A stretch of 64,000 bases of DNA, from the IMG/VR virus record IMGVR_UViG_2799112265_000001, positions 32,001-96,000 of that record. One strand, written 5' to 3'. This document shows, piece after piece, positions 1 to 47,743 of this stretch. The DNA comes from a virus (lineage: Duplodnaviria; Caudoviricetes). Position numbers and translations under genes: made by a program. The notes under the pieces are model-generated. The model did not search any database. It saw nothing but the letters and a program-made list of their open reading frames with translations, and had not been told where the DNA came from. How positions within the stretch are numbered: the stretch's first letter is position 1; each line of letters begins with the position of its first letter.

Positions 1-61
1 CGCTGGCGGTTGCTCTCCGCCAACAAGAAGAACAGTACACCATCCGGAAACGTGCTGGCAA
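1..61 (-). promoter_or_regulatory. AGAGCAA leader module copy 1 with class I promoter; target gene lies left of the window
   Basis: Minus strand TTGCCA-N18-TACTGT then GTTGGCGG-AGAGCAA-CCGCCAGC. Confidence 0.85.
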
Positions 62-103
62 GTAGGGGTCTGAGCCCCGAGGAAGCCCAGACCCCACGGC
101 CCG

Positions 104-1195
104 TCAGGCGGCGAGCGCGTACCGGCCACGCAGCAAACTCAGGCGCCCCACGTACATGGCGGCCGAGTACCGGCTGATCTCCCGGCCGATCGCCGTACCC
201 GCCGGGGGCCTGGCGGCCGGCCCGTACTTCGCGTCCAGCTCGGCCGCACGCCGGATGATCTCCGCCATCGACAAGCCGTGCTTGAAGTCGGCCCCCACGA
301 CCACCTCGGTCCGGGCGTAGGCGGCCGCGAGCTCCGGCACCTGCCGCGCCCCGTTGATCAAGTCGTTGTTGCAGCCCAGCACGCAGAACACGCACGACAG
401 GCGCCGGTTACCCCAGTCGTACGCCGGGTGGTACGGCAGACCCGACACGGCTATCTCCCGCCACACGGCCGCGTCGCTCCACGAGTGGATCGGCCGCCAG
501 GTGGTGATGTGCCGCTTCCCGTTGCTCGCCCCGCGGTCGATCTCCACCTCGGCGAGCTGCGCACGCTGGCTGCTCTCCGCCGCGCGCTGCCCGATGCACG
601 CCAGGATGCGCACCGGACGCCCCAGGTGCGCCAGCTCGGCCGTGAGCCGCGTGTACAGCCTGCGGATCGGGCCGCGCTTCACATCCGAGGTGCACCAGCG
701 CGCTTGACTCGACGGCCACGCCGGCGCCACCTCCGCCGTCGCGGGGTCCTCGCCACGCTCGACGGCTTCCCGCTCGGCCTTCGCCTTCAGCTTCCCGTAG
801 CGGATCTCGACCCGGTCGAGGAGATCGGCGCCCTCGGCCTGAACGACCTCGAACCGCTGCACCCCGAGCAAGCGGGCCTGCTCGGCGGCCAGCTCCCGCG
901 TGCCGGCCCACTCGACCCGGCCCAGATCCGCATGGACGACGATGACCTTGTGCAGCATCCCGAGGGCCTTCGCGCGCCGCACGACGTACGACGCCATGGC
1001 CTGACTGTCCTTACCTCCCGACGACGAGATGACTACCCGGTCCGCATCGCGGATCAGCTCGTCGGGGACGGTCGTCCACGGGGTGAGGGGCACGGACGCG
1101 TGCACGGTCTTCCGCCGCGTCGGCTTGGGCTTCGGAGGGACGGGCGGCTCCTCGGCCTGGACGGCGGGGAGGTCGAACAGCATGGCGGCCTGCAT
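104..1195 (-). CDS. PAPS reductase family protein (PP-loop)
   Basis: SSSGGKDS PP-loop, WCTSDVKRGP, GQRAAES, RPIHSWS and RLSCVFC motifs. Confidence 0.85.
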   Translation of the reverse strand: MQAAMLFDLPAVQAEEPPVPPKPKPTRRKTVHASVPLTPWTTVPDELIRDADRVVISSSGGKDSQAMASYVVRRAKALGMLHKVIVVHADLGRVEWAGTRELAAEQARLLGVQRFEVVQAEGADLLDRVEIRYGKLKAKAEREAVERGEDPATAEVAPAWPSSQARWCTSDVKRGPIRRLYTRLTAELAHLGRPVRILACIGQRAAESSQRAQLAEVEIDRGASNGKRHITTWRPIHSWSDAAVWREIAVSGLPYHPAYDWGNRRLSCVFCVLGCNNDLINGARQVPELAAAYARTEVVVGADFKHGLSMAEIIRRAAELDAKYGPAARPPAGTAIGREISRYSAAMYVGRLSLLRGRYALAA

Positions 1196-1272
1196 GGCGG
1201 AGTCCTCGGAGTGGGGCAGGGGCAGGGGCGCGGGGTGCGGGGCGCGGATCGGTGTCCGCGCCCCGCAAGAGG

Positions 1273-1515
1273 TCAGAACTCGTCGTAGACCGTGGTGTCG
1301 TTGACGGTGACGAGCAGCGGCACGGTGTCGCCGGACAGGAGACCCGCAGGGATGCCGTCGGTGTCCACGTGCACGGACACGACGAGCTGCCCGCGCTCGG
1401 CGTCGACGTAGAAGTGCACGGCCGCGCCCGCGACCCGAATGGCGGGGTGCTTTCCGTTGGGCTCCAGGGTGGCGGCGAGGTTCAGTTCACGGGCGACGGC
1501 GGGACTGACGTTCAC
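1273..1515 (-). CDS. hypothetical protein
   Basis: GAAAGG RBS, GTG start, co-oriented with neighbours. Confidence 0.7.
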   Translation of the reverse strand: MNVSPAVARELNLAATLEPNGKHPAIRVAGAAVHFYVDAERGQLVVSVHVDTDGIPAGLLSGDTVPLLVTVNDTTVYDEF

Positions 1516-1557
1516 GGATGGCGCCTTTCAGCGGTACGAGGTGCGGTGGATGGTGAG

Positions 1558-1583
1558 CCGGGGCGCGGTGCTGCGCCCCGGCG
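1558..1583. repeat. GGGGCGC...GCGCCCC intergenic hairpin family member
   Basis: CCGGGGCGCGGTGCTGCGCCCCGG; its reverse complement recurs at about 8043. Confidence 0.7.
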
Positions 1584-1594
1584 GGGTGGAGCTG

Positions 1595-2422
1595 CTACGC
1601 GGGGACCGTGGCGGGCCGGGGGTGACGGGCCAGCAGGACGGGGCCCTCCTTGTCGAGCCAGCGGGCGACCGCCCACGCGGTGACGGCGGACTCCTCGACG
1701 GGCGTCAGACCCTCCGGGGCACGGAACACCTGGCCCTCGAAGTCGTCGGCCGGGGTGTAGAGCTGCACGCTCCACGGCTCGTCATGCGCGGTCGCGGCCC
1801 GGTCGGCGTACTCGTCCGAGCTGATCACCAGCCGCAGACCCGCATCCGCATCGGCCAGGTCGTCGGTGCGGTCGACGGCCACCAGGACGTGCGAGGCGCC
1901 CGCGTAGCGCTGGAGGAAGGCGGGGACGCCGTACGCGCGGAGAGCGGCGCACAGCTTGTCTCCCTCGGACGGTCCGGCGATCTCGGCGGCGGCCAGAGCA
2001 GCGGCGAGCGGGTACCGGCCCTCGGCTCGGACGCCCGGCGGGGTGAGGATGATCCGGGTCAACCGCTCGACGTCGTTCGGGCAGCCCTCTCGGTACTCCT
2101 GCACTCCCCACCCGGCGGCCCAGAACAGCCCGGCCCAGTCGAGGAGGAGGTCCTCCCTCGTCTCGCGGAGCGCCTTGTAGTCGATGGCGGCGCCCGGCTC
2201 GGCCGCGTCCTGCACGAGGTAGTCCATGACCACCTCGCCGGAGCGGGCACGCGGGTCCAGGTAGGCGCCGGCCTCGATGCACTCGTGGTGCTCGTTGAAC
2301 ACGGCGAGCGGCCGGTCAGCCTCCGTCAGGACCGCGATGGCCGCCCGGACCTGGGGGGACTTCAGGCTCGCGGGGAGCGCGCCGGTCGTCCGGAGGGCGG
2401 ATGCGGGCGGGTTGAGCTGCAT
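1595..2422 (-). CDS. hypothetical protein (MQLNPPAS...)
   Basis: ATG directly after leader copy 2. Confidence 0.8.
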   Translation of the reverse strand: MQLNPPASALRTTGALPASLKSPQVRAAIAVLTEADRPLAVFNEHHECIEAGAYLDPRARSGEVVMDYLVQDAAEPGAAIDYKALRETREDLLLDWAGLFWAAGWGVQEYREGCPNDVERLTRIILTPPGVRAEGRYPLAAALAAAEIAGPSEGDKLCAALRAYGVPAFLQRYAGASHVLVAVDRTDDLADADAGLRLVISSDEYADRAATAHDEPWSVQLYTPADDFEGQVFRAPEGLTPVEESAVTAWAVARWLDKEGPVLLARHPRPATVPA

Positions 2423-2509
2423 GGGGTGTTCCTTCGATTCGGGGTTGGTGCCAGCGGTTGCTCTCCGCCAACAGGAAGAACAGTACACCATTCGGAAACG
2501 CGCTGACAG
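2423..2509 (-). promoter_or_regulatory. AGAGCAA leader module copy 2 with class I promoter
   Basis: TTCCGAATGGTGTACTGT; GTTGGCGG-AGAGCAA-CCGCTGGC; CCGAATCGAAGGAACACCCC-ATG. Confidence 0.9.
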
Positions 2510-2577
2510 GGGGAGTGCTGGGGAGTTTTCAGGGGTCGGGGCACGCCGTGACGCGCCCCGGCCGGTGAGGGAAGTGG

Positions 2578-3147: not shown

Positions 3148-3247
3148 CGGTGGTGCTCCTTCGTGCGGGGCGCAGCAGATCGGGGGGGGAGAGTGCCGGG
3201 GCGCGGCGGATACGGTCGCGCCCCGGCGGGAGAGGTGACCGGACCGG

Positions 3248-3673
3248 TCAGATGACGTCGGTGACGTCGTAGAAGCTGGCCAGGCCGCGCGTGAACCGCT
3301 CCAGGGAGAGCGTCAGCGTGGGCTCGGCGAACTCGTCGCGGACGGCCTTCTCGTAGGACAGCTCGGCCAGGGCGAGGGTGCTGTGGTCGCTGGCCATGTG
3401 ACGGTGGATCGACCAGTAGTCGACGGCCCAGCGGAGCTTCTGCGTGACCGGGTCGATGTACTCGACGCACCGGATGATCAGGTCGGCGTGCCCGTCCGCG
3501 CCGTTGATGACGGACTCGCGGATCTTCTTGCCGCCCAGCAGGTTGAACACGAAGGCGTCGGCCTGCTCTCGGGGGGTGTCGGCGGACCCGTCGGTGTTCA
3601 CCACGGCGCGCATCGGCCCGTACTGGGCGTAGAGCTGCGCCTCGGGCTTGAGAGCCAGCAGGGCAGGGGTCAT
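3248..3673 (-). CDS. hypothetical protein (MTPALLALKP...)
   Basis: ATG after leader copy 3. Confidence 0.8.
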   Translation of the reverse strand: MTPALLALKPEAQLYAQYGPMRAVVNTDGSADTPREQADAFVFNLLGGKKIRESVINGADGHADLIIRCVEYIDPVTQKLRWAVDYWSIHRHMASDHSTLALAELSYEKAVRDEFAEPTLTLSLERFTRGLASFYDVTDVI

Positions 3674-3762
3674 CGGGGTGTCCCTTTCGCTTCGGCGGTG
3701 ACGTTGGCGGTTGCTCTCCGCCAACAAGAAGAACAGTACACCATTCGGAAACGTGCTGGCAA
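3674..3762 (-). promoter_or_regulatory. AGAGCAA leader module copy 3 with class I promoter
   Basis: TTGCCA-N18-TACTGT; GTTGGCGG-AGAGCAA-CCGCCAAC. Confidence 0.9.
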
Positions 3763-3832
3763 GGGGCCGATTCGAGGCACCTGTGGGGAACCGGGTCCCG
3801 CGCCCCTCCCCAGGGCACGGGACCCGGCATCC

Positions 3833-4918: not shown

Positions 4919-6346
4919 CTAGCGGCCGGCGTGCTCGGCGAGGGCCTCGCGGGCTGCTGCTGTGCGGAGCCGGTCGGCCTCGGCCGCGCGCTGCTCCTCG
5001 CTGAGCGGCTCCAGCCAGTAGGACGATTCGCCCGTGGTCGACTCCAGGTTCACGCCGCCGGCCTGGGCGCGGTAGCACTGCCAGTCTTCGCGTTCCGCCC
5101 ATGCGATCAGGTCGAGGGCGGCGGCCCTGTCGACGATCTCGGTACGGGGGTCGCGGCCGAACACGCGGAAGTGCTTCATCCAGTGCTCGCCCTCGCCGAG
5201 GAGGGCGGCTGCGTTCTCGGCGGCGCTGCGGATCAGGGCGGGCGCGGTGCCGAACACGGAGTCGAGGGAGGCGCGGGTGACCATCAGGTGCATGTCCGGC
5301 GGGAAGGTGCTGCCGGTGGTGCTCTCGTTGTGGCTGCGGAATGTCCAGGTGGGGCGGACCCAGGGCGCGCCGGGGCCGGCGTAGGCGGTGACGGTGGCGA
5401 CGGTGCGGGTCTGGCCCATGTGCGCGTGGATGACGTCCATGCCGGGGCGGATCATGTCGGCGCGGACGGGGAGCGCGGAGCCGTCGGCGACGGCGGCGAA
5501 CGTCTCGGCGTAGTAGGCGGCGAGTCCCGCGTCGATGTCGCCGGTCAGCTCGGCGTCCGTGGGGCGCTCGGCCGGGGCGGGGAACGTGTCGCCGGGGGTG
5601 GCGGGGCGCAGGTACACGGTCCGGCCGTCGCGGTAGACGATGTGGGCGGTCGACTTGCTTGCGGACATCCGCTTGACGGTGCGCTTCACCTGCGGCTGCA
5701 TCATCGCGGCGGTGATCTCGTCCAGGGCTTCACGGGTCGGAATGACCTCGGTGGGGCCGTCGTTGACGATCCGCACGTGCTGGCGCTCCTCGGCGGCCGG
5801 GGGGAGCGGGGCGTAGCGGCGGGTGTCGCAGTGGATGGCGCCCTGGTCGTCCTGGTGGATGAGGCGGCCCGCGCTGCGCCGGTTCTTCACGATGGTTCGG
5901 ACGTGGGTGGCGGGGATGCCCGCGTGGGCCTGGCGGCCGTCGACGTACACGGCGTGGGGGGCGTCGACGACGTCTTCGGGCAGGGGTGCGGTGTCGCGGG
6001 CGTGCTGGGCGGCGTCGCGGCCCAGCTGCTGTACGGCGGAGGTGATGGCGGCCAGGGTGCGCATCTTGCGGGAGGCGACGGCGCTGGACGCGACGGCGTC
6101 TTCGAGGCGGCCGCGGGCGCCCTTCCGCTTGGCGACGGTCCACAGCATGGTGACGGTCTCGTTCTGGAGGGCGCGGCCCAGCTCGGTTCCGGCGTAGGCG
6201 GCGGGGACGCGCATGCCGATGCGGACGACGTGGCTGGTGAGGGTGTCGCGGTCCTGGCTGGTCACGGTCACGGTGAGGTCGTGGGCGAGCGCGAGGGTGA
6301 CGATCTCGTCGGCGTTCTTGATGCCGGTACGGGGCTCAGCGGCCAT
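4919..6346 (-). CDS. hypothetical protein (MAAEPRTG..., 475 aa)
   Basis: ATG after leader copy 4; GC3-rich. Confidence 0.8.
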   Translation of the reverse strand: MAAEPRTGIKNADEIVTLALAHDLTVTVTSQDRDTLTSHVVRIGMRVPAAYAGTELGRALQNETVTMLWTVAKRKGARGRLEDAVASSAVASRKMRTLAAITSAVQQLGRDAAQHARDTAPLPEDVVDAPHAVYVDGRQAHAGIPATHVRTIVKNRRSAGRLIHQDDQGAIHCDTRRYAPLPPAAEERQHVRIVNDGPTEVIPTREALDEITAAMMQPQVKRTVKRMSASKSTAHIVYRDGRTVYLRPATPGDTFPAPAERPTDAELTGDIDAGLAAYYAETFAAVADGSALPVRADMIRPGMDVIHAHMGQTRTVATVTAYAGPGAPWVRPTWTFRSHNESTTGSTFPPDMHLMVTRASLDSVFGTAPALIRSAAENAAALLGEGEHWMKHFRVFGRDPRTEIVDRAAALDLIAWAEREDWQCYRAQAGGVNLESTTGESSYWLEPLSEEQRAAEADRLRTAAAREALAEHAGR

Positions 6347-6392
6347 GGGGTGTTCCTTCGTTCGGGGTGCGGCCCCGGTTGCTCTCCGGGGC
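6347..6392 (-). promoter_or_regulatory. AGAGCAA leader module copy 4 (no promoter box)
   Basis: GCCCCGG-AGAGCAA-CCGGGGC ... CCGAACGAAGGAACACCCC-ATG. Confidence 0.85.
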
Positions 6393-6492
6393 GGGGTGGG
6401 GCGGTGCGCCCTGCGCCTGACACCGGGGAGGGCCGGTGTGGGGGGCGGGGCGCACCGCCCGCCGTTGTGTGGGCGGGCGGTGCGGCGGGCGG

Positions 6493-6959: not shown

Positions 6960-7052
6960 TTCCGAGTGGTGTACTTTTCCGGTGTGGTCATGTACTGTCG
7001 TCATCAGTCGGGGAGAGCAACCCCGACAACCACCGCCGAACGAAGGAACACC
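6960..7052 (+). promoter_or_regulatory. AGAGCAA leader module copy 6, divergent from copy 5
   Basis: TTCCGAGTGGTGTAC box, TACTGT, GTCGGGG-AGAGCAA-CCCCGAC, CGAACGAAGGAACACC-ATG. Confidence 0.85.
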
Positions 7053-7523
7053 ATGCGTCTGCGTGCCCTCTTCACCTGTCCCGCCGCCCTCCTCGCCGCC
7101 GGACTCGCCACCGCCACCGTGGCCATCGCCGCAGTGGCCGGCATGACCCCCACCGCCGCCGCGCCCCACCCGGCCCGCACCACCACCATCGCCGCCCCCA
7201 CGGCCACCGCCGACACCGTCGCCACCTTCAACGACGGCTTCACCGACGGCCGCTCCGACGCCATCGGCGACGACAACCGGAACAACCGCGTGGAGCCCGG
7301 CGAGACCGGCTGGAGCTGCCGCACCACCCCCGCCGCCGACCTCGACCTCTGCCTCCAGGTCGCCGCCCAGCCCTCCTACTCCTGGCGCGCCCCCAGCGGC
7401 GCCACCATCGGCAACCCCAACGGCCGCGCCCTGATCGCCGACCTGGAGGTCAAGCCCGGCACCCCGCTGTGGACGGACACCCTGCGCGCCCTGCACGCCG
7501 ACTACACCGCGCACACCCGCTGA
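7053..7523 (+). CDS. putative secreted protein
   Basis: Basic then Ala-rich hydrophobic signal-like N-terminus. Confidence 0.75.
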   Translation: MRLRALFTCPAALLAAGLATATVAIAAVAGMTPTAAAPHPARTTTIAAPTATADTVATFNDGFTDGRSDAIGDDNRNNRVEPGETGWSCRTTPAADLDLCLQVAAQPSYSWRAPSGATIGNPNGRALIADLEVKPGTPLWTDTLRALHADYTAHTR

Positions 7524-8918: not shown

Positions 8919-9007
8919 TTGCCAGCGCGTTTCCGAATGGTGTACTGTTTTTCTTGTTGGCGGAGAGCAACCGCCAACACCACCGCCGAACGAACGGAAC
9001 ACCCGCC
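8919..9007 (+). promoter_or_regulatory. AGAGCAA leader module copy 7 with class I promoter
   Basis: TTGCCA-N18-TACTGT; GTTGGCGG-AGAGCAA-CCGCCAAC. Confidence 0.9.
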
Positions 9008-9442
9008 ATGGCCTCCACCCGTGCCCGCGCCGCCGCCGCCGAACTCCGCAACCGCGCCCGCGCCGCCCGCGAACTCCGCACCGCCACCAAGGCCGTGGCC
9101 ACCGGCACCGCCTCCGCCTCCAACCACCTGATGGCGGGCGGCGTCACCCCCCTGGTCGCCCACAACTACGCGGCCACCCTCACCCGCAAGACCAAGAGCA
9201 TCGGCCGGACCCCGCTCGCCAGCCGCACCATCAAGAAGCGCCCCGGCAAGAAGGGCCTCACGGTCTCCCGCACCGGCGACCTCGCCCGCATGAAGCGGCA
9301 CCGCGTCGTCCCCGTCGCCCTCTGGACCCTCGAAGACCTCCGCGCCCTCGCCCTCTCCGGCTTCCGCCCGAAGAACACGCAGGTGGCCGACTTCCTCGCC
9401 GCGCTCGCCCTCGGCCGCCCCGCCGCCCGCGCCGCCGCCTGA
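9008..9442 (+). CDS. very basic hypothetical protein, possibly nucleic-acid binding
   Basis: Arg/Lys-rich 144 aa ORF after leader copy 7. Confidence 0.8.
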   Translation: MASTRARAAAAELRNRARAARELRTATKAVATGTASASNHLMAGGVTPLVAHNYAATLTRKTKSIGRTPLASRTIKKRPGKKGLTVSRTGDLARMKRHRVVPVALWTLEDLRALALSGFRPKNTQVADFLAALALGRPAARAAA

Positions 9443-11652: not shown

Positions 11653-11702
11653 CGGCCGGAGAGCAACCGGCCGCCGTAACCCGAATCGAAGGAACACCCG
11701 CG
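11653..11702 (+). promoter_or_regulatory. AGAGCAA leader module copy 9
   Basis: CGGCCGG-AGAGCAA-CCGGCCG ... CCGAATCGAAGGAACACCC. Confidence 0.85.
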
Positions 11703-12536
11703 ATGAACACCCTCGCCGTTGCCCACGCCGCCGCCGCCACGGCCCTCGCGCAGCTCCTGCCCGCACGCCGTGGCGTCGCCTGGCAGCCCGGCCCCGCCGC
11801 CTTCCCCGTGCACCCCGACGCGCCGACCACCCGGCTCACCCAGCACGACCGCACCCTGATCGTCGCCGAGCACCAGGGCGCCATCGAGGTCTGGGCGGGC
11901 GAGCCGCAGACCGTGTTCTGCCGCCCGGCCGCCGTGGTCGACGCCAGCACCCCGGACGCCGTCGCCGTCCTGGCCGCCGAGGTACTGCGCAGCGTGCTCC
12001 CCGCCCTCGACAACGAGGCGGCCCGCTACACCGGCCCCAACCACGACCACAAGCAGGTGGTCCGCGCCAAGGAGCGGGCCCTCATAGAGCTGGGCTACCT
12101 GCTGCGCGACCTGGGCGCGGCCGACCTGGCGGGCCGCCAGCACATCGACGGGCCCGGCCTGCACTGGAAGACCAGCGAGGGCGCGGAGTGGGACGTGCTG
12201 TCCCTCGGATACCAGGGCACGTTCACCGTGGCGTACAACGGGCCGATCAGCGGCCTGCACGGGCTGCTGCCGTACCTGCTGCGCCCCACCCCGGGTGACG
12301 GCCACACCGACACGGGCAGCGCCTTCACACGCCACCTGGGCGCCCGATTCCCGCAGTTGGCCCCCGTCGACGCCCACGAGGTGGACTTCGGCCGCATCGA
12401 CACCCCCGGTGGATACATCGCGCTGCCGTCCCTCGACGTGTGCCCGGACCACGCCGACGACTCCACGCGGGTCGCCTCGCAGATCGCCCACGTCGGTATC
12501 GACCTGCTGCTGGCCGCCGCCTCCGCGCTCGTCTGA
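11703..12536 (+). CDS. hypothetical protein, paralogue of 12606..13469
   Basis: ATG after leader copy 9; shared LLPAR, VLPA.D.E, DTP.G and G.DLL blocks. Confidence 0.8.
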   Translation: MNTLAVAHAAAATALAQLLPARRGVAWQPGPAAFPVHPDAPTTRLTQHDRTLIVAEHQGAIEVWAGEPQTVFCRPAAVVDASTPDAVAVLAAEVLRSVLPALDNEAARYTGPNHDHKQVVRAKERALIELGYLLRDLGAADLAGRQHIDGPGLHWKTSEGAEWDVLSLGYQGTFTVAYNGPISGLHGLLPYLLRPTPGDGHTDTGSAFTRHLGARFPQLAPVDAHEVDFGRIDTPGGYIALPSLDVCPDHADDSTRVASQIAHVGIDLLLAAASALV

Positions 12537-16005: not shown

Positions 16006-16082
16006 TTCCGAATGGTGTACTATCGCGGTGTTGGTGGAGAGCAACCACCAGCACCACCGCGAAACGAAGGAACACCCGCCCG
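16006..16082 (+). promoter_or_regulatory. AGAGCAA leader module copy 10 with class I box
   Basis: TTCCGAATGGTGTACTAT; GTGTTGGTGG-AGAGCAA-CCACCAGCAC; CGAAACGAAGGAACACCC. Confidence 0.9.
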
Positions 16083-17423
16083 ATGAGGACTCTCCCGGCC
16101 AAGGTCCAGACCGCCGTCCATGTCGCCACGCTCACCCGCAAGGCCGGTCTGCCCATCCCGGCGGAAGTCCTCACCGTCCTCGACGAAGCCGCCGCCCCGT
16201 TCCCCGGCCGCTGGCTCCTCGACCCTCTCCCCGGCGACCCCATCCGCGTGGTCGAGCTGTTCGCCGGCCCCGGCGGCTGGTCCGAAGGCATCGCCGCCGT
16301 CCTCGGCGTCAACGTCGACGCGGTCGGCATCGACATCTCCAAGGACGCCTGCGCCACCGCCCGCGCCGCCGGGCACCGTCGGATCTGCGCCGACATCACC
16401 ACCCTCGACCCCGAGCACTACGCGCTGCGCCACACGCGCGGCCTGATCGTCTCCCCGCCCTGCCCCTCGTTCTCCCCGGCCGGGAAGCACACCGGGCAGG
16501 AGGCGGCGAACATCCTCACCCTGTGCCGCGTCCTCGCCCAGTGCTCCGAGGCGGGCGGGTTCCTCCCCGGCAGCGAGCTGGACGACTGGTGCACGGGCTG
16601 CGCCGTGTGCGACGAGCTGGGCTACCACGACGGCTACGCCCCCCGCTCCGGCCTCTCCTGGAACGACCTGCGCGCCCAGCTCGCCCCGCTCACCGACGCC
16701 CGTATCGGCCTCATGGCGGAAGTCCTGTTCTGGGCGTTCGGCCTTCAGGCGTCGGGCGCGCCGCTGGAGTTCGTCGCCATGGAGCAGTCGGCCCGCCTGC
16801 CCGAGCAGATCCTCAACGACCTCCGCCTGGAACTGTGCGGCGGGCAGGGCGAAGGCGAGTGGGCCGCCGCCACCTGGGGCGTCCTGGAGGCCTCCCAGTT
16901 CGGTCTCGCCTCCCGCCGCGAGCGCGTGTTCTTCCTCGCCACCCGCCGCTACGTCTCGCTACCCACCCCCGACCCGGAGACCCTCCCCACCTCCATGGCC
17001 GACGCCCTCGGCTGGGAGGAGGGCGAGCGGATCAACACCCGTGGCGTCCGGCCCGTCGACCCGAAGACCGGCCGCGCCAAGGGCGGCAACGAGTTCTCCG
17101 CCGACAAGCCGTCCAACTGCCTCACCGGCAAGGCCCGCACCTGGAAGCGCGTCAGCGACGGACTGCGCCTCACCATGCACGAGGCCGGACTCCTCGTCGG
17201 GTTCCGCCGCACCTACCCGTGGCAGGGGAGCCGCTCCAGCGCCTTCCAGCAGGCCGCCGACGTCGTCTCCCCGCTCATGGCCGCCCTCGTCCTCGGCGCC
17301 GCCCTCGGCGTCCGCCTCGGCAAGACCCTGGCGCGCGACTACCTCACCCAGCTCTACGCCATGGACGACATGCTCCGCCAGGACGACGACGCGCTCACCG
17401 ACGACTACGACCTCGCCACCTAA
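16083..17423 (+). CDS. DNA cytosine-5 methyltransferase (orphan)
   Basis: Motif I ELFAGPGG, motif IV SPPCPSFS, motif VIII SRRERVF. Confidence 0.9.
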   Translation: MRTLPAKVQTAVHVATLTRKAGLPIPAEVLTVLDEAAAPFPGRWLLDPLPGDPIRVVELFAGPGGWSEGIAAVLGVNVDAVGIDISKDACATARAAGHRRICADITTLDPEHYALRHTRGLIVSPPCPSFSPAGKHTGQEAANILTLCRVLAQCSEAGGFLPGSELDDWCTGCAVCDELGYHDGYAPRSGLSWNDLRAQLAPLTDARIGLMAEVLFWAFGLQASGAPLEFVAMEQSARLPEQILNDLRLELCGGQGEGEWAAATWGVLEASQFGLASRRERVFFLATRRYVSLPTPDPETLPTSMADALGWEEGERINTRGVRPVDPKTGRAKGGNEFSADKPSNCLTGKARTWKRVSDGLRLTMHEAGLLVGFRRTYPWQGSRSSAFQQAADVVSPLMAALVLGAALGVRLGKTLARDYLTQLYAMDDMLRQDDDALTDDYDLAT

Positions 17424-26008: not shown

Positions 26009-26608
26009 ATGCCCCGCATCGCCAACAGGCTGAACATCGAAGCTCCGGACTACGACGCTCTGCGCGAGAAGGCCGAGAGGGACGTCGTCCAGGCCCTGGA
26101 CCGGGTCGAGCGCCTGGACGACCGCGTCCAGCTGGCTGCAGAGATCATCCAGCAGGCCGACATCGAGATCGCCACCTACGCCGACACCCGTAACGAGCTG
26201 CTCGCCAGTCTCTACCTGCACGATCTGATCGAGGGCGCGCAGCTCAGCCAGATCGCCGGCGTCAACAAGAACGGGCTGCGCAGGCTGCTGGGGTACGCCG
26301 TGTACGGCTCCGCGGCGAGGAAGACGCTCCCGGCGTACATGAGCGACGCGGACATGAACGCGCTCGCCAAGCAGATGAACGTCCGCCACATCAAGAAGTC
26401 CCCGGGGAAGCAGCTCCTGGAGGCGTCCCTCGTCATCGAGGAGGCCAAGGCCCGCCGCAAGGCCGCCCTGCCCGTCTTCCGGAGGACGGCTCTCGAGCTG
26501 GTGGAGAAGCACGACTGGGCGGTGCACCAGGTCGCGGCTCACACCGGGCAGACGAACAAGTTGATGAGCGAACACCTCAAGTTCGCCCGCAAGGCCCGGA
26601 AGTCCTGA
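26009..26608 (+). CDS. putative DNA-binding protein with two HTH-like segments
   Basis: AQLSQIAGVNKNGLRRLL and VHQVAAHTGQTNKLMSEHL; upstream TGGTGTACCAT resembles the class I box. Confidence 0.7.
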   Translation: MPRIANRLNIEAPDYDALREKAERDVVQALDRVERLDDRVQLAAEIIQQADIEIATYADTRNELLASLYLHDLIEGAQLSQIAGVNKNGLRRLLGYAVYGSAARKTLPAYMSDADMNALAKQMNVRHIKKSPGKQLLEASLVIEEAKARRKAALPVFRRTALELVEKHDWAVHQVAAHTGQTNKLMSEHLKFARKARKS

Positions 26609-40655: not shown

Positions 40656-40719
40656 TATGGTGTTCCCCGAGGCGGAGAGCAACCGCCTCACCTCACCCCG
40701 AACCGAAGGAACACCCGCC
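40656..40719 (+). promoter_or_regulatory. AGAGCAA leader module copy 11
   Basis: TATGGT-N7-GAGGCGG-AGAGCAA-CCGCCTC ... CCGAACCGAAGGAACACCC. Confidence 0.85.
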
Positions 40720-40995
40720 ATGCCGAAGCCGGTCAAGACCGTCGCCTACGCCCTCGGCCTCCTGGCCCTCGCCCACCCCGCGATCGTTCCGCCCGTTCTC
40801 CACGCGCTCGCCTTCGCGGCCGGCCTCGGCGCCGCCGCCGCGCTCTGGGTCCTCGCACACCTCGCGCTCACCCTCACGGTCGCCGCCGGCGTTCTCCTCG
40901 CGCAGTTCCTGCCCGGCCAACTCGGTGCCGCCGCTCGCTGGTTCGGGCGCGCCTGGGATACGTCGATCGACGCGATCCTGCCCCGTACGATCTGA
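40720..40995 (+). CDS. small membrane protein
   Basis: Two to three hydrophobic helices. Confidence 0.75.
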   Translation: MPKPVKTVAYALGLLALAHPAIVPPVLHALAFAAGLGAAAALWVLAHLALTLTVAAGVLLAQFLPGQLGAAARWFGRAWDTSIDAILPRTI

Positions 40996-41242: not shown

Positions 41243-41291
41243 GCGGCGTAGAGCAACCGCCGCAGCCCACCCCGAATCGAAGGAACACCCC
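41243..41291 (+). promoter_or_regulatory. AGAGCAA leader module copy 12
   Basis: GCGGCG-T-AGAGCAA-C-CGCCGC ... CCGAATCGAAGGAACACCCC-ATG. Confidence 0.85.
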
Positions 41292-42203
41292 ATGAGGCGA
41301 AGCCTCGGCATCCCCCTGCGCCAAAATCCGGAGCCCGAACCCGCCTACGGCCTGTACCAGCAGATCCGAGTCGACGCCGAGTCCCGGAGCCGGGGCTTCC
41401 TCGGACCCGACGACCTTCGCCGGTTCGAGGAGGTCGCCTCCCGGCGCGGGGGAGACTGGTGCACCGCTGTCCTCGGCTACAGCTTCCCCGGCATTCACTA
41501 CGTCTCCAGCACCGACGGTTGGCACCTGGTGCACGCCGACGAACTCGGCATCGACCCGCCCCTGCCCGCCCCCGTCGTCCAGGCCCGCGAGGAGACCGCC
41601 GCCCGCGATCGGAAGCGGCAGCAGCAGGAGGCCGAGCGCCGCGACCGTGAGCGCCGACAGTGGGACGCCCTCGTAGCCGCCGCCGGGGTGGAGATCACCG
41701 TGCGGGCCAACACCCGGCACACCGGAGTCGGTGGGGCGCTGCGGCACGCCGTGCCCAACGCCGAGCTGGTGTCCGGCCGCTCACGCCGCCACCTGCCCGG
41801 CCGAGGGCTGTGCGAGACGCCCGGCCGCGCAGACCCGCTGCACCTGAGCGACCCCGTCGACGACCCTGCGAACTGCCGGCGCTGCCTCACCTACATGGAG
41901 CAGGTCCGCGCGCTGGACGCACCCGCCCCGCCCACGGCCGCCGAGCGGCGACTCCTGCAACTGGTCCGCGACGGAGCCGTGTTCACCTTCCACGTCGCGC
42001 GCCGCCCCGCCACCATCCGGGACACCAGCCAGCGCAGCAAGGGCGCCTGGGGACACCTCGGCCGGAAGGTCGACGCCGCCATGCTCAAGCTGGAGGCCAA
42101 GGGCTGGGTGAGCAAGGAGCAGACGTACAGCGCGACGCAAGACGGTCACCGCGGCGACCGTTGGCGGCTGACCGACACCGGTACCGCCGCCCTGGAGGGC
42201 TGA
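41292..42203 (+). CDS. hypothetical protein with H..C..CxxC Zn site and C-terminal winged-helix-like end
   Basis: LRHAV, GLCET, NCRRC; KLEAKGWV...WRLTDTG. Confidence 0.75.
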   Translation: MRRSLGIPLRQNPEPEPAYGLYQQIRVDAESRSRGFLGPDDLRRFEEVASRRGGDWCTAVLGYSFPGIHYVSSTDGWHLVHADELGIDPPLPAPVVQAREETAARDRKRQQQEAERRDRERRQWDALVAAAGVEITVRANTRHTGVGGALRHAVPNAELVSGRSRRHLPGRGLCETPGRADPLHLSDPVDDPANCRRCLTYMEQVRALDAPAPPTAAERRLLQLVRDGAVFTFHVARRPATIRDTSQRSKGAWGHLGRKVDAAMLKLEAKGWVSKEQTYSATQDGHRGDRWRLTDTGTAALEG

Positions 42204-45431: not shown

Positions 45432-45886
45432 CGACCGCAACCGCGCTCGCGCCGGCCGTCATCTTCGACGTCGACGGCACCCTCTGCGACGTGTCCGACA
45501 TCCGCCACCTGACCAAGGGGCCGGGCGGGTTCACCGCGTTCCACGCGGCCAGCATCAACTGCCCGCCCCACCAGGACGTCGTCGACGCCGCCCGCCAGGC
45601 CCGCGCCGAGGGCCTGGCCGTGCTCATCATGACCGGCCGGGACCGCCGCTGGGAGCGGCTGACGTCCATGTGGCTGGCCATGCACGACGTGCCCTCCGAT
45701 GGCCTGTGGATGCGCGGCCGGGGTGACTACCGGCCCGACTACGTCATCAAGAGGGAGCTGCTGCGCTCCGCCCGGAACCGCTACCAGGTGGTGCGGGCCT
45801 GGGACGACAACCCGAACGTGATCCGGCTGTGGGAACAGGAGGGCATCCCCGTCACGGTGGTGCCCGGCTGGGAGGACGAGACGTGA
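45428..45886 (+). CDS. HAD-family phosphatase (phage polynucleotide 3'-phosphatase-like)
   Basis: IFDVDGTL, MTGR, MRGRGDYRPD..IK and WDDNP. Confidence 0.88.
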   Translation: MTTATALAPAVIFDVDGTLCDVSDIRHLTKGPGGFTAFHAASINCPPHQDVVDAARQARAEGLAVLIMTGRDRRWERLTSMWLAMHDVPSDGLWMRGRGDYRPDYVIKRELLRSARNRYQVVRAWDDNPNVIRLWEQEGIPVTVVPGWEDET

Positions 45887-46341
45887 CAGAGCACCTGACC
45901 CTCAGCGGCAGCGCCGTCGTCGGGCCCCTGGCGGTGAGCGCTGACGCCATCGGATGTGCGGCCATCGACCCGCCGCCGCCGAGCATCTCCATACCCGGCG
46001 TCGGAGGGCGCCCGCTGGTCACGATCCACCCCGGCGGCCGACTGGAGTTCGGCGACGGCTACAGGCCGGACGAGGCGGCCCAGGCGTTCTGGGAGGCCGT
46101 GCAGCGCTTCACCCCGCCGCCGATGACCTACACGTTCGGCGCGCCGCTCGCGGCCCGGATCGACGCCGAGCTGAAGCACGGCAACAAGGCCATGGAGCTG
46201 CTGCGGCAGTCCCTACGCGTCCACTCTGCGGTCCACGCGGAGAGCGTCGTCGGCCACCAGTACGGGGCGGTGCCGGATTGCGCCTTGTGCGACCACGCCG
46301 CCGCCATCCGGGAGTTCTTCCAGAAGGGCACCACTCTGTGA
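45883..46341 (+). CDS. hypothetical protein
   Basis: GTGA coupling. Confidence 0.7.
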   Translation: MTEHLTLSGSAVVGPLAVSADAIGCAAIDPPPPSISIPGVGGRPLVTIHPGGRLEFGDGYRPDEAAQAFWEAVQRFTPPPMTYTFGAPLAARIDAELKHGNKAMELLRQSLRVHSAVHAESVVGHQYGAVPDCALCDHAAAIREFFQKGTTL

Positions 46342-46793
46342 CCGCGATCGAGAGCGGAGAGGTCTCCTGCATCGCCTGCACCGCAACCGTCGTGCACGCT
46401 CTTCAGGGCATCGTGCGGTGCGCCCTGCCAGTCGGGCACTATGACGCGGCGAACGTGCCGGACTGGGGCAAGGCAGATCCGAACGGGTGGCACCAGTCTG
46501 CGCCTGTCCGCGACGGCACCTGGGTCACCTGGGCCGACACGACGATCGGGGCGACGCCGCACGGCCATCCACTGGCACCAGCGACGGAGCAGTCGACGCA
46601 GGCCGTCCGCTTCATCTGCCCGACGTGCGGCCCGACGGCTGTGGAGGCACACCCCGACCTCGCCGTCGTTCTGCGGTGCTCCAACTGCAAGGAGCACCTG
46701 GCCCACGGCTCCCTCGCGCCCACCAAGAGCCGTGTGGCCCAGAGCCACGACCACCTTCGCGCCGCTCTCGCCGCCATGGAGGCTCAGCAGTGA
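46338..46793 (+). CDS. Cys-rich hypothetical protein
   Basis: GTGA coupling. Confidence 0.65.
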   Translation: MTAIESGEVSCIACTATVVHALQGIVRCALPVGHYDAANVPDWGKADPNGWHQSAPVRDGTWVTWADTTIGATPHGHPLAPATEQSTQAVRFICPTCGPTAVEAHPDLAVVLRCSNCKEHLAHGSLAPTKSRVAQSHDHLRAALAAMEAQQ

Positions 46794-47290
46794 AAGCCCA
46801 CCTTGCAGCGAGTCCGCCCGGGTCCGCCGGACTCACGGCGCCATGCGCGCAGCACCCCGCGGCCCCCGTCATCGGCGGCCTGTGCGGGGGCTGCACCCAG
46901 TACCCGGTAGATATGCGTCCGTCCCCTGCCGGTGCTCGCGTGTTCCTGGCCCCAGTCGATGCTGACCCCGCAGACCCCAGCGCCTGGAAGGAGATCGGCT
47001 ACGTCACCGACTCCTCCTTCACGGAGACGCCCGAGTGGGACACGGCTGACCCGTACCCGTTCGCTCACCTGAAGATTTCGCCGTTCACCGCCTCGGTTTC
47101 GATGAGCCGGTGCCGCGTCTTCCACCCGTGGATCTACCCGCCGTGCGTTGATGCTGTGGCCGCGATCGAGAAGCGGGCCGTTCGCTGGCGGGCCGCCGCC
47201 ATCCTCGCGGAGGCGCTCCACCGCCCGCTCTGGCCGTGCCCCCTCCCCTTCGCAGGCCGCAACGTCAGCGAGAGGCTGTGCTGTCGCTGA
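46790..47290 (+). CDS. hypothetical protein
   Basis: GTGA coupling. Confidence 0.6.
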   Translation: MKAHLAASPPGSAGLTAPCAQHPAAPVIGGLCGGCTQYPVDMRPSPAGARVFLAPVDADPADPSAWKEIGYVTDSSFTETPEWDTADPYPFAHLKISPFTASVSMSRCRVFHPWIYPPCVDAVAAIEKRAVRWRAAAILAEALHRPLWPCPLPFAGRNVSERLCCR

Positions 47291-47373
47291 GATCAATCAT
47301 TCTCGGCGACAACTTCCAATCTCCGTGAAAGACCGGCACAATGAGGGCTGACGGTCAATCAGGGGGGAAGTTC

Positions 47374-47628
47374 ATGACGAACGATGTACCACGGGTCCTA
47401 CGGCTGACGTTCGAGTTCCACATCCCGCGCGGCCTGCGCACCAACATCCGCAACGACCGGCGGGAGAGCGCCGTAGCGTCGCTGATCTCGTCGGTGGAAG
47501 CACTCGCCCACCGGCTGTTCCCATGGGCGGACAGAATGACGGTCCGGCAGGAATGGTCCTACGCCTGGGTCGACAGGACCGAGACGATCACGCTGCCGGA
47601 GAACGACCTGAACACCCGCAAGCCGTAA
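47374..47628 (+). CDS. small hypothetical protein
   Basis: GGGGAAG RBS; lower GC. Confidence 0.6.
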   Translation: MTNDVPRVLRLTFEFHIPRGLRTNIRNDRRESAVASLISSVEALAHRLFPWADRMTVRQEWSYAWVDRTETITLPENDLNTRKP

Positions 47629-47662
47629 CACAACTGAACACCTGGCCCACCAGCCAGACCCC

Positions 47663-47743
47663 GTCGGCGGAGAGCAACCGCCGGCACCACCGCGAATCGA
47701 AGGAACACCCGCGATGCCCTCTCGCTCCGGCGAGGTGAGGTGA
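47663..47743 (+). promoter_or_regulatory. AGAGCAA leader module copy 13 with a 9-codon uORF (MPSRSGEVR)
   Basis: GTCGGCGG-AGAGCAA-CCGCCGGC ... CGAATCGAAGGAACACCCGCG-ATG at 47714, stop at 47743. Confidence 0.85.

Follow-up and report, generated by a model that had tools for sequence, protein, structure and literature searches.

An uncatalogued AGAGCAA leader hairpin ahead of about nineteen non-structural genes of a Streptomyces phage-plasmid

Several described RNA elements invite comparison with the leader analysed here. The put RNA of phage HK022 is a cis-acting antiterminator that binds RNA polymerase without a phage protein, and it forms a two-stem structure of about 70 nt that is present in two copies per genome. 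Stabiliser stem-loops at the 5′ end are known from bacteria and phages, for instance in the E. coli ompA leader and the early RNA stabiliser of Bacillus phage SP82; these are single cases and need no specific loop sequence. Lambda nut sites pair a boxA with a boxB hairpin, which is read through the arginine-rich motif of the N protein. A GNRNA pentaloop is the form that N prefers (PMC12027372). The start-associated sequences (SAS) of cluster K mycobacteriophages are described as multi-copy (11-19 per genome), oriented, and located at translation starts (PMC3203893).

We analysed a window of 64,000 nucleotides from a Streptomyces virus record of 131,782 bp, in which it spans positions 32001-96000. 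Its leader resembles lambda nut in being a small hairpin of phage RNA whose loop is fixed and which lies near the early transcript start. The invariant GAGCA fits the GNRNA rule (PMC12027372), and the genes nearby include one for a conserved phage protein whose N-terminal helix is arginine-rich. In contrast to nut, the leader has no boxA, its loop of 6-7 nt carries an additional A on the 5′ side and lacks a closing U-A pair, its stem sequence is free, each of its 19 copies per genome is tied to a ribosome-binding site (RBS), and the sequence of its candidate protein shows no relation to any Pfam family. With no room for boxA and 19 copies against one or two per operon, the leader departs from two defining features of nut sites and does not qualify as one.

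The sequence-only reading of this DNA had noted a loose likeness to the cluster K sequences, which stands for the layout but not for the detail. As with SAS (PMC3203893), the motif is oriented, comes in 11-19 copies per genome and sits at the starts of some non-structural genes in a temperate actinobacteriophage; there is an inverted repeat just upstream, and the same gene families are tagged across genomes. However, the 13-bp SAS itself does not occur here: at 3 mismatches there are 17 matches versus 29 expected. A hairpin accompanies every leader copy, against about half of the SAS copies, and, whereas the 17-bp arms of extended SAS (ESAS) have a consensus and the spacer varies (PMC3203893), the leader arms covary around a fixed loop. 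Assignment of the leader to SAS/ESAS therefore failed.

The leader is also, like put, a promoter-proximal structured RNA of phage early transcripts, and independence from a phage protein would fit the identical loop found across phages, but it consists of one hairpin of 21-29 nt in about 19 copies tied to RBSs. It shares with the ompA and SP82 stabilisers a hairpin at the very 5′ end of the mRNA (predicted for the leader) followed by an accessible RBS; unlike them, it is a 19-copy family with an invariant loop.

A covarying hairpin with a fixed loop

AGAGCAA occurs at 10, 2458, 3711, 6379 and 6851 on the minus strand of the window and at 7014, 8964, 10156, 11660, 16038, 40676, 41250 and 47671 on the plus strand. 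All thirteen hairpins described earlier were thus found, against a mean of 2.17 and a maximum of 5 sites in dinucleotide-preserving shuffles of the window (0/100 reach 13). The figure of thirteen applies to the window and not to the genome, which holds 19 copies, all oriented like the next gene. Every one of the 13 window sites is flanked by inverted repeats that give hairpins with GC-rich stems of 7-11 bp; a stem of at least 7 bp around a 7-nt loop is found at only 0.2% of genome positions (530/263,464). The features, in window coordinates, are as follows.

1..25, minus: leader copy 1, hairpin only; loop 10-16, 9-bp stem; RBS block and ATG beyond the left edge (genome 31975)
32..49, minus: promoter-like box TTCCGGATGGTGTACTGT of copy 1; -10-like TACTGT ends 6 nt before the stem
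2420..2473, minus: leader copy 2; hairpin 2449-2473, loop 2458-2464, 9 bp including 3 G-U; block GAAGGAACACC; ATG 2420-2422
1595-2422, minus: gene led by copy 2; 275 aa, no family
2480..2497, minus: promoter-like box of copy 2
3671..3726, minus: leader copy 3; hairpin 3702-3726, loop 3711-3717; block AAAGGGACACC; ATG 3671-3673
3248-3673, minus: gene led by copy 3; 141 aa, family led in 6/6 genomes
3733..3750, minus: promoter-like box of copy 3
6344..6392, minus: leader copy 4; hairpin 6372-6392, loop 6379-6385, 7 bp; block; ATG 6344-6346; no box promoter
4919-6346, minus: gene led by copy 4; 475 aa
6817..6864, minus: leader copy 5; hairpin 6844-6864, loop 6851-6857; block; GTG 6817-6819; extra hairpin between box and hairpin
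6493-6819, minus: gene led by copy 5; 108 aa
6892..6909, minus: promoter-like box of copy 5, divergent from the copy 6 box
6960..6977, plus: promoter-like box 5′ of copy 6; 8 nt separate a second TACTGT hexamer from the stem
7007..7055, plus: leader copy 6; hairpin 7007-7027, loop 7014-7020; block; ATG 7053-7055
7053-7523, plus: gene led by copy 6; 156 aa, hydrophobic N-terminus
8931..8948, plus: promoter-like box of copy 7; TTGCCA upstream; TACTGT ends 6 nt before the stem
8955..9010, plus: leader copy 7; hairpin 8955-8979, loop 8964-8970, 9 bp; block AACGGAACACC; ATG 9008-9010
9008..9442, plus: gene led by copy 7; very basic 144-aa protein, arginine-rich N-terminal helix
10149..10203, plus: leader copy 8; hairpin 10149-10169, loop 10156-10162; block; ATG 10201-10203; directly 3′ of a 13-bp GC hairpin; no box
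11653..11705, plus: leader copy 9; hairpin 11653-11673, loop 11660-11666; block; ATG 11703-11705
11703-12536, plus: gene led by copy 9; family led in 6/6 genomes
16006..16023, plus: promoter-like box of copy 10; -10-like TACTAT
16027..16085, plus: leader copy 10; hairpin 16027-16055, loop 16038-16044, 11 bp; block; ATG 16083-16085
16083-17423, plus: gene led by copy 10; C-5 cytosine DNA methyltransferase
40669..40722, plus: leader copy 11; hairpin 40669-40689, loop 40676-40682; block; ATG 40720-40722; 7 nt after a TATGGT hexamer
ATG 40720-40722, plus: gene led by copy 11; 91 aa, hydrophobic
41243..41294, plus: leader copy 12; hairpin 41243-41263, loop 41250-41256; closing pair a U-C mismatch; block; ATG 41292-41294
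ATG 41292-41294, plus: gene led by copy 12; 303 aa, family led in 6/6 genomes
47663..47743, plus: leader copy 13; hairpin 47663-47685, loop 47671-47677; block; ATG 47714; 9-codon upstream ORF ending 47743
GTG 47745, plus: FtsK/SpoIIIE-like gene directly after the upstream ORF of copy 13

Among the 17 exact-loop copies of the whole genome, standard pairs occupy 118 of the 119 cells of the 7-bp core, double compensatory changes occur at six of the seven core pairs, and the covariation score is 0.748 versus 0.174 in shuffles (0/500 reach it), while sliding the 3′ partner out of register lowers core pairing to 28-54%. The stem thus does change its sequence and keep its pairing, as had been proposed, and its mismatches are indeed mostly G-U, the non-Watson-Crick cells of the core being nine G-U and one U-C. 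Across six genomes, 63 model matches are 90.0% paired versus 60.5% when shuffled (0/500 shuffles reach the observed value). All of these statistics overcount independent events, since the copies are related to each other as paralogues and orthologues. On the sense strand, G-U outnumbers A-C by 43 to 11 (binomial p 1.4e-5) among 93 copies that were picked in six genomes by a rule blind to both mismatch classes; this points to sense-strand RNA.

AGAGC forms the first five loop bases in all 96 curated copies from the six genomes, the whole loop being AGAGCAA in 45 and AGAGCA in 40, so that the claim of an unvarying AGAGCAA is correct for the 13 window sites and too narrow for the family. The two closing G-C pairs are nearly fixed (58/59 distinct rows), and the 3′ linker and the promoter box vary from genome to genome while AGAGC stays. 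Given the covarying stems, the invariant asymmetric loop, the G-U excess, and the constant orientation toward the downstream gene, the element is structured on the sense strand, most simply as RNA.

Promoter-like sequences, linker and ribosome-binding site

The TTCCGnnTGGTGTACnnT box precedes seven of the 13 window copies. The gap between the -10 hexamer and the first paired base measures 6 nt in four of them, 8 nt in another and 3 nt in a sixth; in the remaining copy (loop 6851), a second hairpin lies between the box and the leader hairpin. The copy with its loop at 40676 has a TATGGT hexamer 7 nt upstream, and in relatives the hairpin is also found behind TAGAGT-type and TGTCAC-N17-CGTT-type sequences, in agreement with the earlier observation that it follows closely on several different promoter-like sequences. 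In the whole genome, five copies have a -10-like hexamer whose end lies 6 nt upstream of the stem, and in another four this distance is 3-12 nt. A promoter-like box lies directly ahead of 10 of the 19 copies; the other nine have none, and several of these are directly 3′ of a GC hairpin and may thus be internal to transcripts. About 60 nt of near-identical promoter and hairpin are common to five genome copies. Transcription starts are predictions from the promoter-like hexamers; a scan of window positions 1-18000 for E. coli-type promoters gave no sites.

On the 3′ side of the stem, a G-poor linker with CGAA, predicted to be unpaired, leads to a strong Shine-Dalgarno block (GAAGGAACACC in the source genome), and the start codon follows 22-33 nt after the stem, or 31-39 nt from the loop. 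All 12 complete window copies were confirmed to have the block, with up to 3 substitutions, and a start codon (ATG or GTG) 31-38 nt past the loop; the block and ATG of copy 1, which is cut off at the window edge, were found in the full genome. Hairpins accompany 14 of the 17 block matches with at most one mismatch. In one long-leader copy, the hairpin still adjoins the promoter and the RBS block is about 110 nt away. The mean predicted unpaired probability at -16..+3 is 0.58 in 17 led genes versus 0.44 in 131 other called genes, whose starts are rough calls (Mann-Whitney p 4e-6). In the host 16S rRNA, complements to the loop are no more frequent than expected, UGCUCU being absent and GCUCU occurring once versus about 1.5 expected.

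Carriers, led genes and a candidate reader

The carrier is a family of temperate Streptomyces phage-plasmids of ~125-130 kb that is related to phage Gilgamesh. The stem-AGAGCA(A)-stem core is also present in this isolated phage, other IMG/VR records, ~125-kb Streptomyces contigs and circular plasmids, of which those of 125-130 kb have 7, 10 and 13 model matches; a 180-kb plasmid with only one gene common to the element has none. When five whole Streptomyces genomes were scanned with the model (150 of about 5,000-9,000 first-look candidates scored per genome), significant matches were almost exclusively on the element (9/10, 11/12, 7/7 and 7/10), the fifth genome having two weak matches only. 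An Rfam search was run with the leader element and returned no matching family, and a literature search found no description of the hairpin. We regard the AGAGCAA leader as an uncatalogued putative control tag ahead of about nineteen non-structural genes of a Streptomyces phage-plasmid.

The leader marks a conserved gene set, as had been suggested: three gene families are led in 6/6 genomes and five in 5/6, and the gene of the basic protein (the 9008..9442 family) is led in 6/6, its window member sitting behind a box promoter and hairpin of its own. This 144-aa protein had been named as a candidate binder. It is indeed conserved and very basic, and R14, R16, R18 and R21 of its arginine-rich N-terminal helix are invariant in 21 homologues; these features are its only link to RNA. 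Searches with it gave no Pfam or PHROG match, no PDB fold match and nothing in the protein atlas. Two subfamilies accompany identical loops, with no matching change between loop and protein. Thus, the protein is speculatively a candidate reader of the hairpin and nothing more, and it could equally well bind DNA. The second candidate binder (26009..26608) has no family match, and known RNA-binding families do not appear among the 25 listed of 40 Pfam families for the 117 non-structural ORFs searched.

Possible functions of the leader

The reading that we tentatively favour from the sequence comparisons, with somewhat less than even confidence, is that the element is a 5′-terminal mRNA tag read by one conserved, probably phage-encoded, factor. 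The hairpin would begin at, or within a few bases of, the predicted transcription start behind at least three types of promoter-like sequence, which would place it at the extreme 5′ end of the mRNA. As the loop is constant while stems, linkers and promoter boxes drift, the loop and its closing pairs would be read by a single conserved trans-acting factor, most likely encoded by the phage. By binding the hairpin of about 15-19 non-structural transcripts, it might set their post-transcriptional fate, that is, stability against 5′-end-dependent decay and use of the adjacent open RBS, and the whole leader-bearing gene set would be co-regulated by one protein.

Nut-like processive antitermination is a less probable alternative. 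The nascent hairpin would load a phage protein in the style of lambda N, or bind RNA polymerase directly in the style of HK022 put, and transcription would then pass the GC-rich hairpins behind almost every gene of the two early arms. Hairpins of about -25 to -40 kcal/mol do lie 3′ of nearly every gene at genome 24-50 kb, where many downstream genes have no promoter of their own, but they lack U tracts, and canonical terminators number 3 versus 3.1 expected. The protein with the arginine-rich helix is encoded in 6/6 genomes. A polymerase-binding RNA would explain the identical loop in all six; the leader is, however, a single hairpin, unlike the two-stem put RNA. The pentaloop preferred by N fits the invariant GAGCA, which nevertheless sits within a loop of 6 or 7 nt and lacks the closing U-A pair that N requires (PMC12027372). 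Furthermore, the stem begins 3-12 nt downstream of the -10-like hexamer and so leaves no space for a boxA on its 5′ side. A single site per operon would suffice where there are 19 copies, often one per gene with its own promoter, and the mechanism does not need so tight a spacing between loop and start codon (31-39 nt).

About as probable as antitermination is a leader that acts purely in cis without a dedicated reader: the 5′ stem-loop would block 5′-end-dependent RNases and, together with the G-poor linker, hold a strong RBS open, as an insulating high-expression 5′-UTR cassette spread by duplication. The hairpin's predicted position at the 5′ end, the more open RBS of led genes, the near confinement of the RBS block to the hairpin, and the ~60 nt repeated in five copies, which look like duplication, would all suit such a cassette. 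Nevertheless, a stabilising stem is indifferent to its loop, whereas all 96 curated copies, drawn from six genomes with diverged stems, linkers and promoter boxes, keep AGAGC, and the two closing G-C pairs are nearly fixed; neutral drift would alter the loop at least as fast as the stem.

Recognition of the loop by a phage or host endoribonuclease, which would cut polycistronic early transcripts 5′ of the led genes and leave a hairpin-protected 5′ end, seems quite improbable. The stem-loop junction carries GGAG, reminiscent of the target of T4 RegB, and cuts at the several box-less copies that have a GC hairpin on one side and the next RBS on the other would turn a long transcript into stable monocistronic units. 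However, processing would be unnecessary for the 10/19 copies directly behind a promoter-like box, most box-less copies are preceded by other promoter-like sequences in relatives, and no nuclease family is prominent among the 25 listed of 40 Pfam families.

A signal in the DNA itself, whether an operator bound by a dimeric DNA-binding protein, a cruciform, or a single-strand hairpin with a role in replication, transfer or recombination, is highly implausible: the inverted repeat does lie in intergenic DNA, and the copies of the two early arms face outward from a shared centre near genome 38.9 kb, but variable arms around a fixed asymmetric centre are the opposite of a dimer operator, the excess of G-T over A-C on the sense strand (43 versus 11) makes the structure strand-specific, and orientation tracks the gene and not genome position, the copies at 72-80 kb and 130 kb pointing with their genes.

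The hairpin cassette and its structure

The leader, in which a hairpin with an AGAGCA(A) loop is followed by a linker and a ribosome-binding block before a start codon, is a real, strongly supported and uncatalogued structured element. The window holds 13 AGAGCAA sites exactly where the sequence-only reading had placed them; 100 shuffles averaged 2.17 and never exceeded 5. Every one of the 13 sites is the loop of an inverted repeat that runs in the same direction as the next gene. The count of thirteen copies thus stands for the window, while the full genome has 19 leader copies: 17 of its 19 AGAGCAA sites are loops of such hairpins, one lies in a looser hairpin in a coding region, one has no hairpin, and two variant copies have one loop base changed (AGAGCGA at genome 13870 and AGAGCAG at genome 130383). 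Eighteen of the 19 copies lie at 2-80 kb of the genome and the remaining one precedes the last gene; the virion module (genome ~90-129 kb) has no leader copy.

An ATG or GTG 31-39 nt past the loop, together with a GAAGGAACACC-like block, is found in 16 of the 17 exact-loop copies and likewise in both variants. Since 14 of the 17 block matches in the genome (at most one mismatch) sit behind a hairpin, hairpin and ribosome-binding block form one cassette.

The stem had been described as covarying, and the computed covariation bears this out, with a score of 0.748 for the 17 copies against 0.174 in shuffles, none of 500 shuffles scoring as high. In the 7-bp core of the 17 gap-free aligned copies, 118 of 119 cells are standard pairs and both sides change at six of the seven pairs, and shifting the 3′ partner by 1-3 columns lowers pairing from 90% to 28-54%. 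With a covariance model made from them, the 17 copies score 30-41 bits, and the next match in the genome reaches 16 bits.

The observation that mismatches are mostly G-U also holds, as the non-Watson-Crick core cells of the 17 copies are nine G-U and one U-C. The strand comparison used every AGAGCA loop of six genomes whose stem has five or more Watson-Crick pairs out of seven, a criterion neutral between G-U and A-C. The 93 copies contain 43 G-U against 11 A-C (binomial p 1.4e-5, a generous value because related copies are not independent). This excess of G-U makes the structure sense-strand-specific, as expected of an RNA, and speaks against a double-strand operator or cruciform; a signal acting at the DNA level is therefore highly improbable.

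The coding-region AGAGCAA at genome 18591 (L002:18580-18611, plus strand) is flanked by AGAGGGG ... CCCCTCT around a 10-nt loop. Its model score is 16 bits, it lacks a ribosome-binding block, and it is probably a chance occurrence.

Elements that carry the motif

The window covers bases 32001-96000 of an IMG/VR virus record that is 131,782 bases long. The record is rated 100% complete with direct terminal repeats (a 95-bp repeat was found), and its G+C content is 69-75%. Among isolated phages its sole near match is Gilgamesh (MN234216, 129 kb, host S. lividans), with 83% identity in the terminase and integrase region; the two have in common the layout of the virion module and two divergent small-gene arms. 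A scan with the cassette pattern brought up five more IMG/VR records of 84-126 kb, with 6, 10, 6, 10 and 6 covariance-model matches (E up to 0.01). When one genome per prokaryote species was scanned with the exact pattern, 18 stretches were found, 14 of them in Streptomyces and several on 125-128 kb contigs; the other four (Eubacterium, two Alphaproteobacteria MAGs and Saccharibacteria) have a single match each and were taken as chance.

Model searches of five whole Streptomyces genomes, in which 150 of ~5,000-9,000 first-look candidates per genome were scored, found the matches clustered on the element. A 125.6-kb contig had 9 of the 10 matches in one genome and a 128-kb contig 11 of 12 in another; a third genome had all 7 on a single contig, and a fourth 7 of 10 within 120 kb of chromosome. 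The fifth genome had two weak matches. Three circular PLSDB plasmids of 125-130 kb gave 13, 7 and 10 model matches, and a 180-kb linear plasmid that has only the PAPS-reductase gene in common with the element gave none. Because the matches sit on a phage, on ~125-kb contigs, on plasmids and in a chromosomal cluster, the motif belongs to a Gilgamesh-like phage family that also occurs as plasmids and integrated prophages; as part of the host's own repertoire it was not found in the genomes searched.

The element type itself is seen in four forms. Gilgamesh is an isolated phage, complete Streptomyces genomes have the element as circular plasmids of 125-130 kb, other examples are ~125-kb contigs that stand alone, and one Streptomyces genome has a cluster in its chromosome at 8.39-8.51 Mb. 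The Pfam inventory of the 117 non-structural ORFs includes ParA, SSB, an ECF-type sigma factor, DpdA, a C-5 DNA methylase, FtsK/SpoIIIE and integrase, among others. Given the four forms and the encoded ParA, integrase and FtsK/SpoIIIE-like translocase, the element is a phage-plasmid that may also integrate. The non-structural part also encodes DpdA (E 4e-78) and a PAPS-reductase-like protein, which with the C-5 DNA methylase suggest that the element modifies its own DNA through a 7-deazaguanine-type modification and methylation.

Most led genes (those behind a leader) have no family. A family could be assigned to a C-5 DNA methyltransferase, to a DUF2958 protein and to the FtsK/SpoIIIE-like translocase, whose gene comes after a short upstream ORF. 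When the downstream proteins were clustered by blastp, three families proved to be led in six of six genomes and five in five of six. A basic protein is also led in all six and splits into two clusters of four and two. The led gene set is thus conserved.

Variation among genomes and position in the transcript

Copies from six complete or near-complete genomes were picked by hand where a hairpin was accompanied by a downstream ribosome-binding site or a conserved long leader. This curated set has 96 copies: 19 from this genome, 18 from G004, 17 from the G008 contig, 16 each from Gilgamesh and the G010 contig and 10 from G001. The loop had been called an invariant AGAGCAA, and this is correct for AGAGC, which is fixed in 96 of 96, and not for the full 7-mer: the loop is AGAGCAA in 45 copies, AGAGCA in 40, AGAGCAC in 5 and some other form in 6. 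In Gilgamesh the AGAGCAA 7-mer is not enriched, yet there are ~16 AGAGC hairpin copies, mostly with the 6-nt loop AGAGCA. The five IMG/VR relatives, too, often have the six-base loop (AGAGCA) and occasionally AGAGCTA, AGAGCTT, AGAGCGA or AGAGCAG. The hairpin closes with GG...CC in 72 of the 96 curated copies, and in 69 all seven core pairs are standard. A MAFFT alignment of the 96 hairpins set the gap between 6- and 7-nt loops at the 3′ end, and pairs were counted instead on a model-based alignment of 63 matches (59 distinct rows); there, 90.0% of cells pair, compared with 60.5% after shuffling, and none of 500 shuffles attained the score. Being fitted to the model, this alignment favours pairing.

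The 3′ linker differs between genomes and not within them: this genome has CACCGCCGAACGAAGGAACACC, Gilgamesh and G008 have ACCACGAAGnGAGGAACACC, G004 and G010 have CCAACCAACGAAGCGAGGAACACC, and G001 has GTCCCGAACGAAGGAACACC. The box in the promoter-like sequence upstream of some copies reads TTCCGAATGG here, TTTCCCTTGG or similar elsewhere and GTCTCATTGC in a third group, and all box types are then followed by TGTACTGT or TGTACTAT. The stems vary from copy to copy, so that only the loop and two closing pairs are constant. A constant loop amid varying stems, linkers and boxes is what selection for loop recognition by a conserved partner would be expected to leave; drift after duplication would not give this pattern.

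In this genome, 10 of the 19 leader copies lie behind a box. Between the end of the -10-like TACTGT and the first paired base there are 6 nt in five copies and 3, 8 and 12 nt in three more; in one of the remaining two the hexamer overlaps the outer stem, and in the other an extra hairpin intervenes. Other copies, here or in relatives, have a TATGGT or TAGAGT hexamer 7-10 nt upstream, or a TGTCAC-N17-CGTT-like sequence ~3 nt upstream. Because it lies so close behind several promoter-like hexamers, the hairpin is predicted to be the extreme 5′ end of the transcripts. A scan of window positions 1-18000 for E. coli-type sigma-70 promoters returned no sites.

Boxes in the window with TTCCGnnTGG before TGTACTGT
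32-49: box
2480-2497: box
3733-3750: box
6892-6909: box
6960-6977: box
8931-8948: box
16006-16023: box

This TTCCGnnTGG box differs between related genomes, and the -10-like part and the hairpin are unchanged. By analogy with immunity groups, the box looks like an operator of phage-specific specificity.

One copy, at genome 7076 (minus strand), keeps the promoter-hairpin junction and has its ribosome-binding block ~110 nt downstream, an arrangement that ties the hairpin to the predicted start of the transcript and the block to the start of translation. In this long leader (L002:6930-7096, minus strand, outside the window), the ~110 nt after the hairpin are near-invariant in six genomes, contain CCTGGGCCTAGGTGTAACAAA and are followed by a further hairpin and the block; downstream of the leader comes a module whose Gilgamesh counterpart codes for HTH proteins and AAA ATPases. 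RNAalifold found 43 pairs in the leader, just one of them with a double change. The leader may form a structured RNA of its own or be bound by a protein.

Around the start codon (-16..+3), the predicted unpaired probability averages 0.58 in 17 led genes against 0.44 in 131 other called genes, the starts of which are rough calls (Mann-Whitney p 4e-6). U-tract terminators number 3, about what chance predicts (3.1). In the divergent arms (genome 24-50 kb), nearly all genes have a GC-rich hairpin behind them, at about -25 to -40 kcal/mol and with no U tract. A second hairpin family, CGGGGCGC-loop-GCGCCCCG, is placed after a stop codon and ahead of the next ribosome-binding site, with five exact matches against 0.03 expected. 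It is one of the kinds of GC hairpin that stand behind nearly all early-arm genes, and it too has no U tract.

Exact matches to CGGGGCGC-loop-GCGCCCCG (window coordinates)
1238-1265: hairpin
1559-1580: hairpin
3197-3225: hairpin
7541-7563: hairpin
8044-8065: hairpin

Comparison with known systems and a candidate reader

The Rfam search that the sequence-only reading had proposed returned no match at gathering score in the whole window (Rfam 15); at E up to 5 over window 1-17500 it gave four chance-level matches (E 1.7-3.8), none of them on a leader copy. No description of the motif was found in the literature searched, supplementary files aside, and AGAGCAA together with Streptomyces appeared there only in primer sequences. 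The leader is a member of no described family and, judged by its resemblances, appears to work most like a protein-read phage leader hairpin.

Among such hairpins, nut sites of the lambda type have a linear boxA a few bases 5′ of the hairpin, which is bound by a small phage protein with an arginine-rich motif, and they occur at one or two sites per genome, at the heads of early operons and upstream of terminators. The suggestion that the leader is a site of this kind failed on both boxA and copy number. In the box-promoter copies there is no space for a transcribed boxA ahead of the hairpin, since 3-12 nt separate the -10-like hexamer from the stem and one copy has the hexamer overlapped by the outer stem pairs; the conserved linear stretch lies instead 3′ of the hairpin, where it includes the Shine-Dalgarno block. 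In contrast to the one or two nut sites, there are 19 copies here and 10-18 in each of five relatives, often with their own promoter-like box. The loop bears a partial resemblance: PMC12027372 gives the lambda N/boxB rule as a GNRNA pentaloop closed by a U-A pair, and GAGCA (G-N-R-N-A), found in 92 of the 96 curated loops, fits GNRNA, but the loop here has 6 or 7 nt, carries one more A on its 5′ side and lacks the closing U-A pair. Nut- or put-like antitermination is, on this evidence, unlikely.

A likeness to the start-associated sequences of cluster K mycobacteriophages had also been suggested, and by their description (PMC3203893) it survives in the layout and not in the SAS sequence or the ESAS conservation pattern. 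Both systems come in many copies that run with the genes, stay within the non-structural part and recur in the same gene families. The SAS is a 13-bp GGGATAGGAGCCC at translation starts, whereas the block here is GAAGGAACACC, and a search for the 13-mer gave 17 matches, all at three mismatches and none closer, against a mean of 29.5 in shuffles. In the ESAS the inverted-repeat arms, 17 bp long, follow a sequence consensus and the spacer between them varies (PMC3203893); here the pattern is reversed, as the arms vary with compensation and the loop is invariant.

The interpretation that we tentatively prefer, and regard as possible rather than probable, is that the hairpin would be a 5′-terminal RNA tag of a non-structural gene set, read by one conserved, probably phage-encoded factor. 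A stabiliser and insulator acting purely in cis would need no such factor, and the stem of a 5′-terminal stabiliser starts within a few nucleotides of the mRNA 5′ end, a position that is predicted here from the spacing to the -10-like hexamers; set beside the constancy of the loop, this explanation seems doubtful. That the hairpin is a processing signal is more improbable still.

For a tag read by a phage-encoded factor, a candidate reader had been named in the 144-aa, very basic protein encoded at window 9008-9442 (plus strand). Each of the six genomes encodes an orthologue at the corresponding position, always behind box and hairpin. Its 25 database relatives are all from Streptomyces, many on 124-131 kb contigs, and those named are hypothetical; homologues occur only in these elements, a related-loci search returned just two close relatives, and tblastn against PLSDB gave no match. 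R14, R16, R18 and R21 are invariant in 21 aligned sequences, and an AlphaFold2 model (pLDDT 72) shows a long helix spanning residues 4-32 near the N terminus, then a basic, disordered middle part and finally three helices towards the C terminus. The protein has no Pfam or PHROG family, Foldseek found no match to the model in the PDB below E 3.8, and a protein atlas search gave unnamed clusters only. Since its two subfamilies accompany the same loops, there is no loop-protein co-variation to serve as support, and an N-like pairing of this protein with the GAGCA loop is attractive as a resemblance only. The second candidate, at window 26009-26608, gave together with nine neighbouring ORFs one weak HNH match, and the 25 of 40 Pfam families listed for the 117 non-structural ORFs include no recognisable RNA-binding family. 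Pairing of the loop with host 16S rRNA was also considered and is unsupported, since the rRNA has no UGCUCU and one GCUCU against ~1.5 expected.

The more specific proposal is that of a new RNA-protein licensing system of the N/boxB kind in actinobacteriophages, in which a small arginine-rich protein of the 9008-9442 family would read the GNRNA-like AGAGCA hairpin at the 5′ end of ~15-19 early and maintenance transcripts, switching the whole set on by antitermination or by translational and stability control; we consider it rather unlikely. If a sister lineage with a ACGAGCGA loop were real, lineage-matched pairs of reader and hairpin would be natural orthogonal RNA-protein switches for Streptomyces. 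A scan of viral contigs for such a sister motif was too unspecific (117 single-match stretches), and the GAGCGA...AGGA pattern was not enriched in three plasmids.

Whatever its mechanism, the motif is a well-defined and strongly covarying cis-regulatory RNA with ~100 examples, absent from Rfam and undescribed in the literature searched, and it marks a conserved non-structural gene set in a Streptomyces phage-plasmid family that is widespread. Because one member, Gilgamesh, has been isolated as a phage and can be grown on S. lividans, the question of a loop reader is directly testable. A dedicated reader, if one exists, would be a new case of global post-transcriptional or antitermination control in actinobacteriophages and might illuminate the still unexplained SAS and ESAS motifs. 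The cassette of 5′ hairpin, open linker and strong ribosome-binding site is, in addition, a ready expression part for Streptomyces engineering.

A further observation concerns the FtsK/SpoIIIE-like (TraB-like) gene, which is preceded at window 47714-47747 by a short upstream ORF directly after the leader. In four relatives (L001:8900-9053, L081, L090 and L101) this ORF has 17-18 codons, reading MPSRTA...SR before the stop, and three codons past the stop come an in-frame GTG and a long conserved frame. Here the upstream ORF has 9 codons, and the long frame runs from the GTG at 47745 in a different frame. The upstream ORF is possibly a leader peptide or a means of translational coupling.
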